From IMG/VR virus record IMGVR_UViG_3300024331_000007, positions 128,001 to 192,000 of that record: a stretch of DNA of 64,000 bases; one strand, written 5' to 3'. The notes beneath the pieces are model-generated. The model made no database searches and had not been told where the DNA came from. It worked only from the letters and a program-made list of their open reading frames with translations. Source of the DNA: a virus (lineage: Duplodnaviria; Caudoviricetes). The position numbers were made by a program, and so were the translations under genes. Shown here piece by piece: positions 13,722-52,549 of this stretch. How positions within the stretch are numbered: the stretch's first letter is position 1; every line of letters begins with the position of its first letter.

Positions 13722-14813
13722 TTAAAGGTCCAACATGTGATCTAATGCCACATGCGCCCAATACTTCACCACGTCGCGAACCTTGATTTGATTTACAACA
13801 TTTCCAGAGACAAGATTCTCAAGTGCCCATGCCAAATGTTGTGGAGTGATTCGATACATTGTTGTGCAGAGGCAACCTTGCTCAGTCAGATTGAAAATCG
13901 TCTTTCCAAGTGGAGCGTACTTTTTCGCAAGACGATTCACAAGATGAATTTCGGTTCCGATTGCAAACTCTGTTCCAACAGGAGCAGCATCAACAATCTT
14001 GATGAGGCTTTCTGTCGAACCAACGGCATCTGCTTTCTGGCAAACTTCCCATTTGCATTCTGGATGAACAATCACTTTGATGTTTGGATGAGCAGCACGA
14101 ACATCATCAACGTGACTCGCAAGGAATCTCTGGTGAACGGCACAATGTCCTTTCCACAAAAGAATTTTACTGTGGTCATAATCAGCTTTACTCAAACTAC
14201 CCTGTAGCGCCCACGGATCATACACAGACATTTCATTCAAGGGAATGCCCATATTGTATCCAGTATTACGTCCAAGATGCTGATCTGGCAGAAATAAAAT
14301 TCGCTTTGCTTGCTTGAATGCCCACTCGAAAGCACGTTGCGCATTCGAAGAAGTACAAACCAACCCTCCGTGCTCACCCACAAATGCTTTGATAGCAGCC
14401 GTCGAGTTCATATATGTAATCGGAAGTGTTTCATCTGCCAGATGAAGCTTTTCCAATGTTTCCCAACACGCTTCAACTTGAGAAATTTCTGCCATATCAG
14501 CCATCGAACATCCAGCGTTTAAATCTGGAAGAATAACAATTTGGTCATGGCCCAAAATATCTGCGCTCTCAGCCATAAAATGAACGCCACAATAAACAAT
14601 GTACTTCGCATTTGTTTTCGCGCCATCTTTGGCGAGTTTAAAACTGTCACCTGTGAAGTCCGCAAACTTGATTACTTCGTCGCGCTGATAATGATGCCCC
14701 AAAATGACAACAGAATTACCCAGCGTCTTTCGAGCCGCAGCGATTCTATCGTCCATTGTATTATCGGGGTATTGCAGGTAATTTTCCAGTGTGCAAACTT
14801 GACCAGTTGCCAT
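13722..14813 (-). CDS. nadA: quinolinate synthase A
   Basis: ILGHHYQRDEV, CGVHFMAESA, AGCSMADMA, YMNSTAAIK, CTSSNA, LPDQHLG, WKGHCAVH, VHPEC, GTEIHLV, CLCTTM; 4Fe-4S cysteines present. Confidence 0.97.
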   Translation of the reverse strand: MATGQVCTLENYLQYPDNTMDDRIAAARKTLGNSVVILGHHYQRDEVIKFADFTGDSFKLAKDGAKTNAKYIVYCGVHFMAESADILGHDQIVILPDLNAGCSMADMAEISQVEACWETLEKLHLADETLPITYMNSTAAIKAFVGEHGGLVCTSSNAQRAFEWAFKQAKRILFLPDQHLGRNTGYNMGIPLNEMSVYDPWALQGSLSKADYDHSKILLWKGHCAVHQRFLASHVDDVRAAHPNIKVIVHPECKWEVCQKADAVGSTESLIKIVDAAPVGTEFAIGTEIHLVNRLAKKYAPLGKTIFNLTEQGCLCTTMYRITPQHLAWALENLVSGNVVNQIKVRDVVKYWAHVALDHMLDL

Positions 14814-16811: not shown

Positions 16812-17390
16812 TTATTTTTTGGCTGATCGGTTACGAGTGTGTGACCTAATGGTAATCAACATTTCGTTATGAAGATCAGCGAGAGCGCCAGCATCATTTT
16901 CAGCATCGTGCGGTCTGCCACGAAATTTCAATCCAACGGATTCCAATGCTTCTGATAGCGGCAACTTGTATTTCTGGTTGTATGCACTTCGCCACAAAAT
17001 ACCAAAATCCAAAATGCCATTAATTGACCACGGATTAGGACAGGAATATTTTGCGCAATGTTCGGAGATTGGTTCGTAATCGCTTCCCCACGCATATGTA
17101 ATTTTGGTTTGCGGAGCGAACTCTTTCTTAATTGTTCGCATAACTTCTGGAAAGTAGTGGCCCTCATCAATTATTTTTGAACGAGTGATTCCTGTCAGTT
17201 TTGTGCAATAGTCGCTGACCTCAAAATGCTTACTTTGGGGTCTGACGAAATAACTTTTTCGGCGTATGATCTTGAGCGTTTCGGATTCAACTTCTACGAT
17301 GCCCAATTGTATAATGTGGTTTGTTTGACCATGTGGACAGTCTCCGTTCTCCCAACAAAGCATCTCTGCATCCAAAAACTGTATTTTCAT
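16812..17390 (-). CDS. DEDDh 3'-5' exonuclease (ERI1/KapD-like)
   Basis: FLDAE, IIQLG, CTKLTGIT, AWGSD, GRPHDAENDA; start trimmed to MKIQFL. Confidence 0.85.
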   Translation of the reverse strand: MKIQFLDAEMLCWENGDCPHGQTNHIIQLGIVEVESETLKIIRRKSYFVRPQSKHFEVSDYCTKLTGITRSKIIDEGHYFPEVMRTIKKEFAPQTKITYAWGSDYEPISEHCAKYSCPNPWSINGILDFGILWRSAYNQKYKLPLSEALESVGLKFRGRPHDAENDAGALADLHNEMLITIRSHTRNRSAKK

Positions 17391-17431
17391 AATTATTCTT
17401 TCTGCCAGTGGCGTATTACTTGAAGTATAAC

Positions 17432-17499
17432 ATAAATACAAATGCGATTCGCGGTGTTGAAGCACCCAATCGCCCTAACGCTATTATGGAGCGCCAGCT
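17432..17499 (+). ncRNA. late promoter plus conserved structured leader of GIY-YIG gene (copy 2)
   Basis: ATAAATA...GCGATT-CGC-GGTG/CACC-C-AATCGC-CCTAACG-(CGCT...GGAGCG)-CCAGCT-ATG. Confidence 0.8.
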
Positions 17500-18162
17500 A
17501 TGGATATTTACTCCGCAAAATTTTCCCAAGACAAAAAATTTTATGTTTACGAATATCTTCGCGCACATAAATCAAAATATGGTGATATTGGAAGTCCCTA
17601 CTATGTAGGTAAAGGAACTGGTAGTAGAGCGTTTTCAAACGATCATACCACCAAACCGCCAAAAGACAAAAACAATATTCGTGTTTCAAGTTTGATGAAC
17701 GAAGCTGACGCTTTTCAAAACGAAATGTTCAAAATTATGTTGTCGGGCCGTATTGATCTTGGAACTGGTTGCTTACGAAATAGGACTGACGGCGGCGAAG
17801 GTTCGTCTGGAGCAATTCGTACTCAAGATACAATTCGTAAATGCGTAGAAGTTAGAAAACGAAACAATTCTTACAAACGAACTAAAGAAGCAGACAAAAA
17901 AGCCAATGCAACAAAATTTAAAAATGGAACTCATCGTCGTAGCAAAGACTCTCTTATAAAACAAATCAATACTAGGCGAGAAAAAGGTAACTTGAATACC
18001 TGTACTCTTGAAAGTAGAAGAAAATCAGTAGAAACACGAAAAGCAAATGGAACTCTCGGTCGCACCAAGGAATCTATAGCAAAAGGTCTTGCCACACGAA
18101 TATCAAAATATGGCCCATTTGCAAAACCAAAGTTTGAATTGTATTTGCCTTGTATTCTTTAA
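17500..18162 (+). CDS. free-standing GIY-YIG (LEM-3-like) endonuclease
   Basis: FYVYEYLR...PYYVGKG..R, GCLRNRTDGGEG, basic repeat tail; antisense to neighbours. Confidence 0.85.
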   Translation: MDIYSAKFSQDKKFYVYEYLRAHKSKYGDIGSPYYVGKGTGSRAFSNDHTTKPPKDKNNIRVSSLMNEADAFQNEMFKIMLSGRIDLGTGCLRNRTDGGEGSSGAIRTQDTIRKCVEVRKRNNSYKRTKEADKKANATKFKNGTHRRSKDSLIKQINTRREKGNLNTCTLESRRKSVETRKANGTLGRTKESIAKGLATRISKYGPFAKPKFELYLPCIL

Positions 18163-18169
18163 CAAGGAA

Positions 18170-18480
18170 CAAGGCTAAAACCTCGGAGTAGTTTTTAGGC
18201 TACTGGCACCGCTACGCGGTTGAGAGCAACTGTGTAAGTTGCAATCTCGGCATTGCGGCCACTGTTGTTCACAGCAATTATAGTTTCCATTCCCTTAACG
18301 TCAGGCTTGGTACTCGGTTCGTAACTAACGCTATATTTGACCCGTCGAAACCTTGGCACCCACATTTGAAAAACGTAATACATAAATTGGTGTAGGTGGC
18401 GGGAATCGAACCCGCGTCCGAATCAGTATAACGTGAGTCTCTCTCACACGAACGTCATTCGCAAAAACATCTTTACGAAT
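18170..18480 (-). ncRNA. ssrA: circularly permuted (two-piece) tmRNA
   Basis: Acceptor piece first: T-arm GCGGG-TTCGATT-CCCGC then CACCTAC-A-CCA ending at 18388. Then a 24-nt spacer. Coding piece starts at 18363 (GTGGGTG-CCAAGGTTTCGAC). Acceptor stem GTGGGTG/CACCTAC has G3:U70. Inter-piece helices CGGGTCA/TGATTCG, TATAGCG/CGTTATA, ACGAAC/GTTCGT. ATAATT precedes resume codon GCT; tag 18195-18275 = AVNNSGRNAEIATYTVALNRVAVPVA; stop codon lies in a hairpin. Outer ends approximate. Confidence 0.92.
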
Positions 18481-18482
18481 GT

Positions 18483-19018
18483 TTAGGACTTTTCAGTCCT
18501 GAGCTTCGATGCGGCCTTCACTAAATCCGCATCATATGTCACATGAAACTTTACTTCAAAATCTTCAACCTTCTTTCCAGTCTTCCCATCTAAAACTTGA
18601 GTCCGTTTCAAAGTGCTATTCAACTTTCCATCGCACTTTGTATTCTTTTTCTTCAACTCGTCAATGAAATTGAGAGCCTCAGAACATTTCGCAAAATCTT
18701 TTACAGTGAGGTTCATTAGTTTGAATACCTACGTGAACCTTTCCGATCAGTCAACCACTCCAGATTCACACGCTTCGCAGTTTCAGTATTCTCACCAGCA
18801 TCAACAAGTTTGTTCCAGACAGTCGCAAAATTTCGTGCGGCATCTTCAGGAACGTCAGCAGCAATAAACTGTCCAGTCACACCGTCAAAAACATCAACAG
18901 TGTCCATTAGCGCGTTTGGGTTTTGCGCAGGAACCAAAATTACGTGATTTCCAGCTTCGCGCAACTTTTCTGTGATTGCTTCATCAAACCATTTCGTCAT
19001 TTCGTTCCTACTTTCCAT
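18483..19018 (-). other. two hypothetical ORFs (18483-18716, 18716-19018)
   Basis: ORF track; co-oriented, immediately upstream of tmRNA. Confidence 0.55.
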
Positions 19019-28890: not shown

Positions 28891-30141
28891 CTACGATTTA
28901 GTCTTTTTGGCAACCGATTTTTTCTCAAATATTTCGATTTTTGGTATTTCCTTTTTATCTACACAGTTGCCGTGAAAAGTAACTTTGGCCACTCTTCGCT
29001 TTTGGTACTCTGGAATAATGTATAAATGTGGTAACATGATGGCGTCACAAATAGATCGAAGACCTCGAACTCCAGTTTTTTCAGTTTTTGCTTGATGTGC
29101 AACTCTTTCCAAAAAGTCGTTGGTAAATTCCAAATCTATCCCATCCACGTTAAAGTAGAATTTGTATTCAGCTAGAATGTTGTTCTTTGCATTAGTAAGA
29201 ACTTCCAAGAGTTCAACTTCAGTTAGCTCTTTTGTGTGGGTTTTCATTGGAAATCTCCCCACAAATTCTGGAATCATACCAAACTCTACGAAATCTTCAG
29301 TGACATATTCGGCATCAAGATTTTGGGTAGCTGCAACTGCGGCATCTCCGAAGCCAAGTCCCTTCTTTTTCTTTAATCGAGTAGTCACAATGTCCGTCAT
29401 TCCGATGAACGCACCACCACAAATGAATAACATATTCGAAGTATTAACTTCCACTACCTTTGGCGCTCTTTTTGAGTCTGGATTTAACGTAACTGGTATG
29501 ACCGTTCCTTCAACCATCTTCAATAATGCAGACTGGATGCCTGATACTTTAGCTTCCGATGCAGTGGCGCGATTCTTCGTAGTGATCTTGTCAATTTCAT
29601 CTATGAACACAATACCATTTTCGGCTGCATTGATGTCACCATTAGCTTCCATTAGCAAGCGTGTGATGATAGTATCAACATTTTGACCAATATATCCAGC
29701 TTCAGTAAGAGTTGTGGCATCTACAGCTATGAAAGGAACATCCAGAAACTTTGCAACGGTACTCACCAGCAGGCTTTTTCCACTTCCACTCGGCCCGGTA
29801 ATCATTAAGTTACTCTTATTCAGATCACTTCCTTCGTGTTCGTAGAGCATCCTCTTATAATGATTTACCACGCTGACGCAAATAGCCATTTTTGCCGTCT
29901 CTTGGCCGATCACAAACTGGTCCATGAACTCTCTAATCTTTATACTATTGAGTTGTTCAACCAATTGCTTCTTTTCTGCCACTTGCGAAGGAACAATCTC
30001 AGACGCAGGGGTGCTCTTGAGCAGGCCGTTGAACAGGATTATGCATTTGTCGCATATCGAGTAGTCACCGCTTACGACCATCTTGAGGCTCTCACCTCTA
30101 CTTTTTTTGCAGAAAGTACATTTGATGGGATTTTTAGTCAT
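28891..30141 (-). CDS. clpX: ATP-dependent Clp protease ATP-binding subunit ClpX
   Basis: C4 Zn domain, VIGQETAK, GPSGSGKS, DATTLTEAGYIG, FIDEIDK, LGF loop, GMIPEFVGR, TGVRGLRS. Confidence 0.93.
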   Translation of the reverse strand: MTKNPIKCTFCKKSRGESLKMVVSGDYSICDKCIILFNGLLKSTPASEIVPSQVAEKKQLVEQLNSIKIREFMDQFVIGQETAKMAICVSVVNHYKRMLYEHEGSDLNKSNLMITGPSGSGKSLLVSTVAKFLDVPFIAVDATTLTEAGYIGQNVDTIITRLLMEANGDINAAENGIVFIDEIDKITTKNRATASEAKVSGIQSALLKMVEGTVIPVTLNPDSKRAPKVVEVNTSNMLFICGGAFIGMTDIVTTRLKKKKGLGFGDAAVAATQNLDAEYVTEDFVEFGMIPEFVGRFPMKTHTKELTEVELLEVLTNAKNNILAEYKFYFNVDGIDLEFTNDFLERVAHQAKTEKTGVRGLRSICDAIMLPHLYIIPEYQKRRVAKVTFHGNCVDKKEIPKIEIFEKKSVAKKTKS

Positions 30142-34390: not shown

Positions 34391-34465
34391 TGGTAGCCGA
34401 CCCCAGATTTGAACTGAGATAGCTAGTTTCGAAGACTAGCGTCCTATCCGTTGGACGAATCGGCC
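34391..34465 (-). tRNA. trnR-UCG: tRNA-Arg (UCG)
   Basis: Cloverleaf: CTAGT-CTTCGAA-ACTAG, T-loop TTCAAAT, encoded CCA. Confidence 0.9.
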
Positions 34466-34472
34466 ATAAATT

Positions 34473-34547
34473 TGGTAGGCAATGAAGGAATCGAACCTTC
34501 GTCTACGATTTAGAAGATCGTCGTCCTGTCCGTTGAACGAATCGCCC
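34473..34547 (-). tRNA. trnR-UCU: tRNA-Arg (UCU)
   Basis: ACGAT-CTTCTAA-ATCGT, GAAGG-TTCGATT-CCTTC, encoded CCA. Confidence 0.92.
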
Positions 34548-46019: not shown

Positions 46020-46102
46020 TGGAGCTAATGGAGGGAATCGAACCCACGGTGTTTGTATGGCAGTTTACAAAACTGCTGCTGTCGCCACTGAGCCACATTA
46101 GC
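46020..46102 (-). tRNA. trnT-UGU: tRNA-Thr (UGU) with enlarged variable loop
   Basis: GCTAATG/CATTAGC-T-CCA; GCAGT-TTTGTAA-ACTGC; T-loop TTCGATT; 83 nt. Confidence 0.8.
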
Positions 46103-46744
46103 TTAAATTGTTCGGCCTTTATACCATCCAACAGGAATCTCTGAATCTTTGGCCGTCTTCTTATTTATGCTTCCGTTAGTAATCCACATCGTTCCAAACT
46201 GAGTATTCTTTGGACCTTGAGAATGGCCTATTCTTGCGAGAGTTGCATATCTTTTCTTATTTGCTTCTTCAGTTTGAGCCTGTTGAATTGCCTTTGCTTG
46301 ATACTTTTTACGATCTTCTTCGCTCATTGCGAATATTCCCCGTTTTAAGTCTCTAGCTCTCACTCCACCCTTCGAATTGATTTCTTGTTTTCGTTCTTTC
46401 GAGTAGCCGTGTATCCCAAGTTTCTTTTTGACAATTACCAATCCACCCGCCAACTGCTCTTGAGGTGTCCAACCGCCCTTCCCACCCAAATGAACATTAT
46501 AGGTGTCTTTACGAGCAATAAATTCTTCGTTAACCAACTCTCGCTCTTTTTCAAACATTTCGGAGCGTGTAACAAAGTTGAATAACGTCACTCGTTTGAA
46601 GTTTTCAGGTCCGTACTTCTTTACAGCCTTTCGGAAGATGCGACCAGACCCTAAGTATCCATCATCAATATTATCGGTAATGTGTGTTCCGATGTATATT
46701 TTTCCATTGATGAGATTTGTGGTTTGGTACACTGTGTAATGCAT
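46103..46744 (-). CDS. Seg-like GIY-YIG homing endonuclease inside tRNA cluster
   Basis: MHYTVYQTTNLINGKIYIGTH...DDGYLGSG; start trimmed; stop codon abuts tRNA 5' end. Confidence 0.88.
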   Translation of the reverse strand: MHYTVYQTTNLINGKIYIGTHITDNIDDGYLGSGRIFRKAVKKYGPENFKRVTLFNFVTRSEMFEKERELVNEEFIARKDTYNVHLGGKGGWTPQEQLAGGLVIVKKKLGIHGYSKERKQEINSKGGVRARDLKRGIFAMSEEDRKKYQAKAIQQAQTEEANKKRYATLARIGHSQGPKNTQFGTMWITNGSINKKTAKDSEIPVGWYKGRTI

Positions 46745-46750
46745 TTGATT

Positions 46751-46825
46751 TGGAGCCTCGTGACGGAACTGACCCGTCAACTAAACTTTACAAGAGTCTT
46801 ATTTTTCCAGTTAAACTAACGAGGC
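46751..46825 (-). tRNA. trnT-UGU: tRNA-Thr (UGU), degenerate T-loop
   Basis: GCCTCGT/ACGAGGC-T-CCA; AGACT-CTTGTAA-AGTTT; T-loop GTCAGTT is non-canonical. Confidence 0.65.
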
Positions 46826-46829
46826 AAAA

Positions 46830-46904
46830 CATCGCAGTGGTTCGGGGTGCTGTCCTCATATTGAGGCCCGTATATTGCTTACGTCTACCAGTGAATCCAC
46901 TGCG
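46830..46904 (-). ncRNA. tRNA-sized structured element between two tRNAs, unassigned
   Basis: Closing stem CGCAGTGG/CCACTGCG; inner CGGG/CCCG and CCTCA/TGAGG; contains TGGTAGACGTAA. Confidence 0.4.
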
Positions 46905-46911
46905 GGAATGT

Positions 46912-46986
46912 TGGAGCCGAATAACAGACTTGAACTGTTTCCTTATCTTTACGAGAGATATATTCTACCAGTTAAAATAATTCGGC
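46912..46986 (-). tRNA. trnT-CGU: tRNA-Thr (CGU)
   Basis: GCCGAAT/ATTCGGC-T-CCA; TATCT-CTCGTAA-AGATA; T-loop TTCAAGT. Confidence 0.85.
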
Positions 46987-47348
46987 AAAACTTATATTTT
47001 GGGGTTAATAGACTTCAATGCCATATACTTCCCCGCCGATCCACGTATCCTTTCTTACCATTGTTCACCGCCGATGTAGGTATCTTTGCTGATAATCTTA
47101 ATCTTGCGGCCCATACCATCACACGAATCAAACTCGTGACCGCGAATGCCTGTGTTCGGAGCGTCAAAATCATGTCCAATCGTTAGGGTCATATCGTCTC
47201 TCTCGGATGGAGCTAGTTTGTTTCTGTTCGTTTAAGAAATCTTCCTTAGCCCAAAGTCTCTTTTTCCATTCTGGTAACTGTTCGTACTTTTTCTCAGCCT
47301 GTTCAAAAACTCTTACTAACCACTTGCCTTCCATAACACATCCTAATT

Positions 47349-47423
47349 TGGAGCCGATTTAGGGAATTGAACCCTAGTTTCAACCATACCAAGGTAGCGT
47401 AATAGCCACTATACGAAATCGGC
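47349..47423 (-). tRNA. trnT-GGU: tRNA-Thr (GGU)
   Basis: GCCGATT/AATCGGC-T-CCA; CTACC-TTGGTAT-GGTTG; T-loop TTCAATT. Confidence 0.88.
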
Positions 47424-47438
47424 GTAAATCTAAAAATT

Positions 47439-47513
47439 TGGCTGGTCCACAAGGATTCGAACCTTGAATGTCTGAGTCAGAGTCAGAAGTGATAGCCGTT
47501 TCACCATAGACCA
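47439..47513 (-). tRNA. trnQ-CUG: tRNA-Gln (CUG)
   Basis: TGGTCTA/TGGACCA-G-CCA; TCTGA-CTCTGAC-TCAGA; TTCGAAT. Confidence 0.92.
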
Positions 47514-51985: not shown

Positions 51986-52549
51986 TTAATAAAATTCCAC
52001 CACTTGATCGGCAAGTCCGTACTTTACGGCTTCCTTTGCCGTCAACCAAACATCTTGCGGTGGAAGCAAATACTTTTTTATCTGTGGTTCTGTTAGACCT
52101 GTGCAAAGTTTGATATGAGTCATTACGCGCTGCGTTGCATTATTGAACTCAGTAACCTTGGCCATCAGTTCATGTTCTTTACCGTGCGATCCCCACGAAA
52201 ACTGGTGTGACAGAATCGCAGTGTTTCTTGTGATGAACCGCTTTCCCTTAGTTCCAGCGATGAACGCGAACAATCCAGCACTGCTAATTTGTCCCAATCC
52301 ATATGTACAGATCGGAACGCGGCTTCCTTTCATAGTATCAATTAATGCGAAACAGCTTGGCATTTCTCCACCCGCTGAATTGAAAATCATCTTCATCATT
52401 TTCGGCGGTGTGTCCATAAGATTGCGTTGAAGGATAAACGTTATCGCCTCGCCAGTTGAGCTAGGGTCAAAATCCTTGTTGAAAAGAAAATAGTGGTGAT
52501 CTTCTAATGTTGGGATGTTTGGAACTTTAACATCTTCTTGTAGGCCCAA
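51986..52549 (-). CDS. clpP: ClpP-family protease subunit
   Basis: FNSAGG, GQISSAG (catalytic Ser), SHQ (His), D.WLTAKEAVKYGLADQV. Confidence 0.85.
   Translation of the reverse strand: MGLQEDVKVPNIPTLEDHHYFLFNKDFDPSSTGEAITFILQRNLMDTPPKMMKMIFNSAGGEMPSCFALIDTMKGSRVPICTYGLGQISSAGLFAFIAGTKGKRFITRNTAILSHQFSWGSHGKEHELMAKVTEFNNATQRVMTHIKLCTGLTEPQIKKYLLPPQDVWLTAKEAVKYGLADQVVEFY

Follow-up and report, generated by a model that had tools for sequence, protein, structure and literature searches.

A permuted tmRNA gene with a long tag lacking an Ala-Ala end, and a diverged ClpX, in a soil jumbo phage

Two-piece transfer-messenger RNAs (tmRNAs) encoded by permuted ssrA genes are already known as a kind from phages: one has been described in phage Melnitz, and two-piece forms make up 53 of 133 unique phage tmRNAs (PMC9004378). 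Huge phages carrying both a tmRNA and SmpB have been reported (PMC7162821), and a tmRNA has been annotated in the Phosso-like phage AP-J-162 (PMC11242549). The route by which two-piece tmRNAs mature, through RNase P cleavage, trimming to the CCA end and loss of the spacer, is established (PMC11915505). Here we describe a permuted tmRNA gene on the minus strand of a 64,000-nucleotide stretch of DNA (the window), bases 128001-192000 of the IMG/VR virus record IMGVR_UViG_3300024331_000007 (359,890 bp, estimated 90% complete). Its terminase, tail sheath and portal genes mark the record as a jumbo myovirus of ~360 kb from soil. From its sequence, the locus is very probably a functional ssrA gene whose product is a two-piece tmRNA, in a phage whose host was probably a member of the Acidobacteriaceae.

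The closest described phage genes are those of marine myophages, Methylophilales phage Melnitz and the pelagimyophages (PMC9004378). Like the soil phage gene they are permuted ssrA genes on smpB-less lytic myoviruses; in both settings the RNA type need not equal that of the host, and the gene is common, not universal, within the phage group. The marine genes are of alpha type, with short tags ending -AA and sometimes a glutamine riboswitch (PMC9004378), whereas the soil phage gene passes no clade-specific model, encodes a 26-residue tag ending -VA, and belongs to a jumbo phage from soil whose host was probably acidobacterial and which has a diverged ClpX of its own. An earlier note on this DNA had taken phage tmRNAs to be one-piece, which is at odds both with the published count and with 22 permuted calls among 77 IMG/VR contigs described below; its main novelty claims fall, since the two-piece phage kind was already known. 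The gene is nonetheless a distinct variant, with a conserved long non-Ala-Ala tag, no clade-specific model, kinship to a little-noticed acidobacterial lineage, and a co-diverged ClpX.

ARAGORN calls a permuted tmRNA ('tmRNA*', window 18104-18480, minus strand), its 3' tRNA domain ahead of its 5' domain, with the tag AVNNSGRNAEIATYTVALNRVAVPVA followed by a stop. The Rfam model RF04321 (tmRNA_permuted) matches 18234-18453 on the minus strand over its full length (model positions 1-213) at 87.1 bits against a gathering threshold of 47 (E 2.5e-15). The clade-specific models do not reach their cutoffs: beta_tmRNA (RF01850) scores 56.6 bits against 84, over model positions 76-171 only, the tRNA-like domain, and neither alpha_tmRNA (RF01849) nor cyano_tmRNA (RF01851) is at gathering threshold for the locus. 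We conclude that the gene belongs to the permuted form of tmRNA (RF04321). Read along the minus strand, it runs from the 5' strands of the helices through the T-arm, acceptor 3' strand, A73 and CCA to a spacer, and then through the acceptor 5' strand, GGUUUCGAC, the helix 3' strands, a hairpin, UAUAAUU, the resume codon and the tag to UAA. The acceptor stem has 7 base pairs with G3:U70, a discriminator A and an encoded 3' CCA; the T-arm is GCGGG-UUCGAUU-CCCGC (18415-18399), with a canonical T-loop; and three helices join the pieces (CGGGUCA/UGAUUCG, UAUAGCG/CGUUAUA and ACGAAC/GUUCGU). The features in order, with the evidence for each in brackets where it differs from this reading, are as follows, PK1 being the first tmRNA pseudoknot.

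18486..18499, minus strand: upstream hairpin with a GNRA tetraloop, GGACU-GAAA-AGUCC, overlapping the last codons of an upstream open reading frame (ORF) of 77 residues (sequence)
18457..18480, minus strand: second leader hairpin, AUUCGUAAAG...UUUUUGCGAAU (minimum-free-energy fold)
18388..18453, minus strand: core of the acceptor piece (Rfam alignment, ARAGORN 3' tRNA domain, covariation of T stem, acceptor stem and helices)
18453-18448, minus strand: first of the helix 5' strands of the acceptor piece, GUUCGU, the others being GUUAUA and CUGAUUCG, with a local hairpin at 18447-18433
18398-18392, minus strand: acceptor 3' strand CACCUAC, then discriminator A (18391) and encoded CCA (18390-18388)
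18364..18387, minus strand: intervening sequence of 24 nucleotides, predicted to be lost on maturation (sequence)
18276..18363, minus strand: 5' part of the coding piece (Rfam, sequence, ARAGORN)
18363-18357, minus strand: acceptor 5' strand GUGGGUG, G3 opposite U70, then GGUUUCGAC
18344-18338, 18335-18329 and 18322-18317, minus strand: helix 3' strands in the coding piece
18310-18287, minus strand: hairpin where PK1 would lie; ACGUUAAGGGA loop region conserved
18195..18275, minus strand: tag frame, resume codon GCU at 18275-18273, 26 codons, stop UAA at 18197-18195 (ARAGORN)
18147..18185, minus strand: putative H-type pseudoknot 3' of the tag, stem S1 18185-18181/18167-18163 and stem S2 18175-18169/18153-18147
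18195..18383, minus strand: 62-residue ORF with an ATG start, in frame with the tag and spanning spacer, coding piece and tag (ORF list)

The earlier note had proposed a permuted tmRNA with the CCA end at 18388, the 24-nucleotide spacer, the 5' end at 18363, G3:U70 and three helices, and ARAGORN, RF04321 and the minus-strand reading bear this out; ARAGORN also returned a permuted call with a tag identical to the note's. The Infernal comparison with permuted models came out divided, the general RF04321 passing and the alpha, beta and cyanobacterial models staying below cutoff. That tRNA scanners would miss the gene proved wrong for the phage copy, which ARAGORN finds, though it missed all six relatives tested.

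Set against the alphaproteobacterial two-piece tmRNA (RF01849; Caulobacter type, with the phages Phosso, G009, G015, G020 and G181, the last not scored on RF01849), the gene has the same order of acceptor piece, spacer and coding piece, and shares with it G3:U70, a CCA encoded in the gene and P2 helices that connect the two pieces. It differs from the alpha type in falling below the RF01849 cutoff; in a T-loop that is canonical, not GGCNNUA-like; in the motif GGUUUCGAC where the alpha type has AGGAUCGAC; in the hairpin in the PK1 place; and in a tag about twice as long and without an Ala-Ala end.

Two IMG/VR contigs, L019 (UViG 3300048809_000043, the same contig also labelled L010) and L063 (UViG 3300028854_000020), are collinear with the phage on both sides of the tmRNA gene, at 40-83% amino-acid identity, and each has its permuted tmRNA at the corresponding position. 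In a three-way alignment of these genes, RNAalifold finds compensatory changes in 24 of 68 predicted pairs. A seven-sequence alignment of the three phage genes, three acidobacterial chromosomal genes and a further IMG/VR contig, L080, gives 14 compensatory pairs of 29; G3:U70 is present in 7/7 sequences, and the other acceptor pairs covary. In this alignment 95.1% of paired cells can pair, compared with 80.3 +/- 1.8% in shuffles, none of 1000 of which reaches the observed value, and sliding the partners by 1-3 columns drops pairing to 37-46%.

The GNRA hairpin, which may belong to a precursor leader or to the 5' end of the acceptor piece, has the counterpart AGUC-GAAA-GACU in L063 and L019, with compensatory changes; the second leader hairpin is specific to the phage and missing from its relatives in the alignment. 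The stem of the hairpin in the PK1 place shows compensating changes relative to the acidobacterial copies (CCA..UGG as against GGUC..GGCC). Between the tag stop and the putative H-type pseudoknot lies a motif, ACUCCG, conserved in the three phages. Both stems of that pseudoknot are compensated in L063 and L019 (derived by hand, three sequences), and the 3' region of the coding piece probably lies here; we call the pseudoknot putative because a brute-force search gives alternative pairings too. Could the region instead encode the 62-residue protein of ORF 18195-18383, and no RNA? The ATG-started frame of 62 codons exists, but it has no Pfam match and covers the spacer and the 5' half of the tRNA-like domain, the covariation is of RNA type, and the alignment upstream of the resume codon is one of RNA helices and not of codons; we regard this reading as wholly implausible.

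The tags of the three phages form a family of 23–27 residues ending -V/L/M-Ala, that of the window ending -VPVA.

Tag of the phage, 26 residues: AVNNSGRNAEIATYTVALNRVAVPVA
Tag of L063, 27 residues: AANRINGVNEIATYNVVRNQVNVPVLA
Tag of L019, 23 residues: ANSVNDGTEVYTHSVKIRVPVMA

Between the phage and L063, 16 of 25 aligned tag residues are identical, 7 of them through different synonymous codons, and the tag frame is the only stop-free frame common to all three genes. Judged from these sequences, the tag family is under purifying selection. The resume context UAUAAU-GCU is likewise conserved among the three phages. The earlier note had called the tag unusually long with an end in -VA; the tag is long and ends so, but its length is not unusual for such genes (22-27 residues in viral permuted genes, 30 in acidobacterial ones).

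The tag bears on the possibility that the RNA is a decoy, in which the tRNA-like domain alone matters, titrating host SmpB or blocking trans-translation as proposed for mycobacteriophage DS6A, and the tag goes unused. The phage lacks SmpB, phage forms reduced to the tRNA-like domain are known (PMC4131195, PMC11915505), and L080 has a near-identical tRNA-like domain followed by a different downstream region. Against a decoy stand a homologous tag frame that three diverged phages keep open through many synonymous changes, a conserved resume context, and conserved structure 3' of the stop, and we consider this explanation very improbable.

As a functional two-piece tmRNA, the gene would be transcribed from the minus strand as a single precursor, which RNase P, with the phage's RNase P RNA or as the host enzyme, would cut before G18363; trimming would take the acceptor piece back to the encoded CCA (18388), with loss of the 24-nucleotide spacer. 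The two RNAs would be held together by the acceptor stem and the three long-range helices, and charged by alanyl-tRNA synthetase by way of G3:U70 and A73. Host SmpB would bring the RNA to stalled ribosomes, the phage having none, and translation would resume at GCU, adding the 26-residue tag ending -VPVA. The absence of smpB, which the earlier note had stated for the window, extends to the whole 360-kb record.

The tag ending has a possible counterpart in two proteolysis genes of the phage.

28891..30141, minus strand: phage ClpX with a zinc finger in its N-domain, GYIG pore-1 and an LGF loop for docking ClpP (316 bits to E. coli ClpX)
51986..52549, minus strand: ClpP-family peptidase (PF00574, 98.9 bits), from its sequence a probable partner of the phage ClpX

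The E. coli ClpX residues critical for reading Ala-Ala-COO- are Y153, V154, T199, V202, R228 and H230 (PMC7652416). The phage ClpX keeps Y153 and has changed the other five (V154I, T199A/S, V202A, R228S and H230R, in E. coli numbering). L063 and L019 ClpX are altered at the same five residues, residue 228 being S, L and F across the three phages. The ClpX proteins of G009, Phosso and G181, phages related by terminase whose tags end -AA, and of two Acidobacteriaceae retain SITRDVSGEG together with an RKH or RKN loop. The match of tag ending to ClpX loop is thus perfect in eight genomes, but counts as one evolutionary event. The tag may be a private degron for the ClpXP that the phage itself encodes, the ClpX residues that read ssrA having diverged along with the tag ending; from the sequences we regard this as a real but minority possibility. 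Slightly more tentative is the wider proposal that a private tag-and-degrade circuit parts phage-rescued products from host quality control, and that the phage-associated lineage has displaced the one-piece ssrA in some Acidobacteriaceae. A ClpX probe of IMG/VR recovered one further record only.

Mycoplasma sets a precedent for the co-evolution of a long tag and a protease: according to PMC8403727, which cites Gur and Sauer 2008, its 27-residue ssrA tag co-evolved with Lon, which reads it. Like the phage's, the Mycoplasma tag is long, hydrophobic and without the canonical Ala-Ala ClpX signal; its reader is the cell's own Lon, ClpXP being absent, whereas the phage tag is suspected to be read by a ClpX that the phage encodes and whose pore loops are altered. 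In several jumbo phages (G181, this phage, G001 and G024), with G181 and the two relatives of the tag family among them, the permuted tmRNA lies 6.5-11 kb from phage clpX, which looks like a loosely linked translation-quality-control neighbourhood.

Several points weigh against a functional gene of this kind or against its link to ClpX. PK1 is not recognisable, its place being occupied by a hairpin, and the tag lacks the Ala-Ala end. The ends of the mature pieces are predicted at the CCA end and G18363 only. A phage tRNA with a UUA anticodon could in principle read the UAA stop of the tag. The link of ClpX to the tag comes from one clade of three phages, effectively a single event, set against three phages and two bacteria. 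Finally, the sequences show the anatomy of the gene, its conservation and distribution, the covariation, selection on the tag frame and the residue changes in ClpX, and from the DNA we infer transcription, the processing sites, charging, tagging and protease specificity.

Permuted tmRNAs are present in phages well beyond this clade. A scan of IMG/VR for the permuted arrangement returned 77 candidate contigs, 22 of which ARAGORN calls permuted, with viral tags of up to 27 residues, including tags of 22-27; the other contigs are partly real genes that ARAGORN misses and partly chance matches in coding DNA. By terminase, the closest cultured phages are Pseudomonas phage PA5oct (52%), Sinorhizobium phage Phosso (49%) and Agrobacterium phage Atu_ph07 (48%). 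Three further records with a permuted tmRNA stand among 23 IMG/VR entries related by terminase, for the most part small fragments, and the terminase relatives with such a gene include G009, G015, G020, Phosso and G181, a complete 322-kb phage with terminal repeats whose permuted tmRNA scores 116 bits (L347:1410-1782). RF01849 is passed by Phosso, G009, G015 and G020 at 56-108 bits. The relatives whose tags were read have ordinary -AA tags.

The Phosso gene, of alpha type, scores 113 bits (L226:1501-2103, PV764938.1 349596-350198) and is unannotated in GenBank; like the relatives that ARAGORN overlooks, it marks a gap in annotation. Its spacer is 410 nucleotides long and highly structured, the other genes having 13-50, and this intervening sequence contains no long ORF and no other Rfam match. 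Searches aimed closer to the window gene found little. In a blastn search of GenBank phages with the gene only T-arm matches of ~40 nucleotides appeared; a strict IMG/VR pattern with the canonical T-loop gave one chance tRNA-Arg and nothing else; and IMG/VR patterns for the tag motif and for TTCGACGGGT gave L019, L063 and chance matches only.

The probable host points to the other close relatives. The phage carries NadA (quinolinate synthase), an auxiliary metabolic gene at window 13722-14813 (minus strand) in a G+C-richer stretch (47% against 41%), and every one of its 80 best bacterial matches, at 68-75% identity, comes from the Acidobacteriota, in most cases from Terracidiphilus or another member of the Acidobacteriaceae. 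The acidobacterial host suggested in the earlier note is therefore plausible, and from this one auxiliary gene we take the host to have been probably an Acidobacteriaceae bacterium. The note had further expected such a host to have a one-piece gene. This holds for most of the Acidobacteriaceae sampled, and four NadA-matched genomes have a standard tmRNA (170-205 bits, tag ANDNLALAA); it fails for three of the 151 genomes (G057, G135 and G078), which have a permuted tmRNA (79-82 bits) with 30-residue tags ending -AFAAAA.

L318, G057:C1:728664-728921: permuted tmRNA
L319, G135:C1:1906607-1906866: permuted tmRNA
L320, G078:C1:2046815-2047070: permuted tmRNA

No standard tmRNA lies above cutoff in these three genomes, so that the permuted gene is the sole tmRNA, and SmpB is encoded elsewhere in each, as it is in candidate-host genomes. 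Nothing stated here draws on the unpublished genome G032. NadA identity is 69-72% to permuted-type and 72-73% to standard-type Acidobacteriaceae; these values do not separate the two types, and the tmRNA type of the real host is therefore not readable from NadA. The acidobacterial copies pass none of the clade-specific Rfam models. A tmRNA database lists, without comment, five 'permuted (beta)' instances in Acidobacteriota (PMC11915505, Table S2), among which the three genes probably stand; we found no literature discussing the five entries.

The acidobacterial genes resemble that of the phage in a tRNA-like domain 76-82% identical, in the 5' start ACG-UCGUG, in the hairpin in the PK1 place with its ACGUUAAGGGA loop region and compensated stem, and in a long tag. 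They are unlike it in tags ending -AFAAAA with the stop UAG, in a spacer of ~13 nucleotides, in two simple hairpins 3' of the tag with no putative pseudoknot, in a G+C content of ~58%, and in accompanying a bacterial ClpX with canonical loops. The G135 gene is surrounded by metabolic genes of the ordinary sort, no phage gene lying within ~5 kb of it, and the three permuted loci have no flanks in common with the conserved standard-tmRNA locus or with one another; comparison of flanks does not fix the direction of transfer.

This likeness raises the question whether the phage gene is a recently captured host gene or the remnant of an integration site, with no role in the phage; tmRNA genes are indeed common integration sites (PMC4383910). 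Yet the gene is complete and no 3' fragment, its G+C of 47% is near that of the phage (41%) and far from that of the bacterial loci (57-62%), and it keeps its place in phages whose flanking proteins share only 40-83% identity. On completeness, G+C content and synteny we think recent capture very improbable, and favour a gene inherited within this group of phages.

The earlier note had also suggested an independent permutation. As the gene is syntenic in related phages, the terminase relatives have alpha-type genes, and three Acidobacteriaceae carry a similar sole gene, this is unproven and, for this phage, unlikely. A broader version, that the permuted form arose apart from the alpha, beta and cyanobacterial lineages, whether in the phage or in an acidobacteria/phage lineage, draws on the phage gene and the acidobacterial copies reaching only RF04321 and no clade-specific model, on a canonical T-loop and GGUUUCGAC unlike the alpha type, and on the replacement of PK1 by a hairpin. 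Against it, the T-loops of L063 and L019 are alpha-like and alpha_tmRNA matches L019 in part, at 35 bits; the terminase relatives pass alpha_tmRNA at 56-108 bits; an origin in this very phage meets the synteny with L063 and L019; and the acidobacterial copies, off the standard locus and without common flanks, fit acquisition better than permutation in place. We judge a separate origin unlikely, though less so for the lineage as a whole than for this phage.

The phage gene is itself a mosaic, its tag nearest that of L063 and its tRNA-like domain nearer the acidobacterial genes and L080 (85%) than L063 and L019 (63-67%). This suggests an exchange of RNA modules, though convergence on a consensus T-arm could explain part of the likeness. 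L080 (IMGVR_UViG_3300030508_000338; the matching segment is L218:47-254) has no proteins in common with the phage, and its tRNA-like domain and spacer, the latter near-identical to the phage's 24 nucleotides, are 84-85% identical to those of the phage; after its apparent resume codon the frame runs on past 26 codons and reaches the contig end without a stop, which may mean that modules were swapped or that the coding piece is of another kind. On the sequences, we infer a gene lineage common to the two collinear phages and a few Acidobacteriaceae chromosomes, with no one-off permutation in the phage.

The rest of the record supplies the setting. It contains no one-piece tmRNA and 52 tRNA genes (ARAGORN), among them two with the anticodon CUA and one with UUA; these three suppressor-type genes lie at G000:C1:24352-25279, outside the window. 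Stop-to-stop statistics give no clear sign of recoding to an alternative genetic code, and read-through of the tag UAA would append KLLRGFSLVPC before the next stop. The main tRNA array occupies genome 11-43 kb; far away from it, at window 46020-47513 and 34391-34547 (minus strand), a second cluster has four genes for tRNA-Thr, two for tRNA-Arg and one each for tRNA-Gln and tRNA-Lys. The phage also encodes an RNase P RNA (RF00010, 118 bits against a cutoff of 100) at G000:C1:19454-20103, outside the window and 650 nucleotides long as compared with a 367-position model. The following gene lies near the tmRNA.

16812..17465, minus strand: RNase T/DnaQ-like 3'-5' exonuclease (Pfam PF00929, 59.7 bits)

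Homologues of this gene flank the tmRNA in L019 and L063 too, and that it trims the tmRNA 3' end is speculative. The neighbouring ORF 17500-18162, used as a probe, recovered no relatives. The public sequencing runs listed as matching the stretch are metagenomes, the two strongest from soil and one marked as a possible source of the DNA, with no RNA run among them.

Why phages carry tmRNAs is poorly understood, and the conserved tag together with the changed ClpX offers a concrete, testable handle; the non-Ala-Ala tag, the co-diverged ClpX and the distinctness of the variant make it worth a test at the bench. That a few Acidobacteriaceae have as their sole tmRNA a two-piece form, similar to the phage's and off the usual ssrA locus, would fit one of two histories: bacteria have a fourth two-piece lineage, or a gene circulating in phages has replaced an RNA of an essential pathway. 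If the tag is indeed read by the phage's own ClpXP, the pair would be an orthogonal, virus-built proteolysis channel, and could be useful in synthetic biology as a set of degron and protease.

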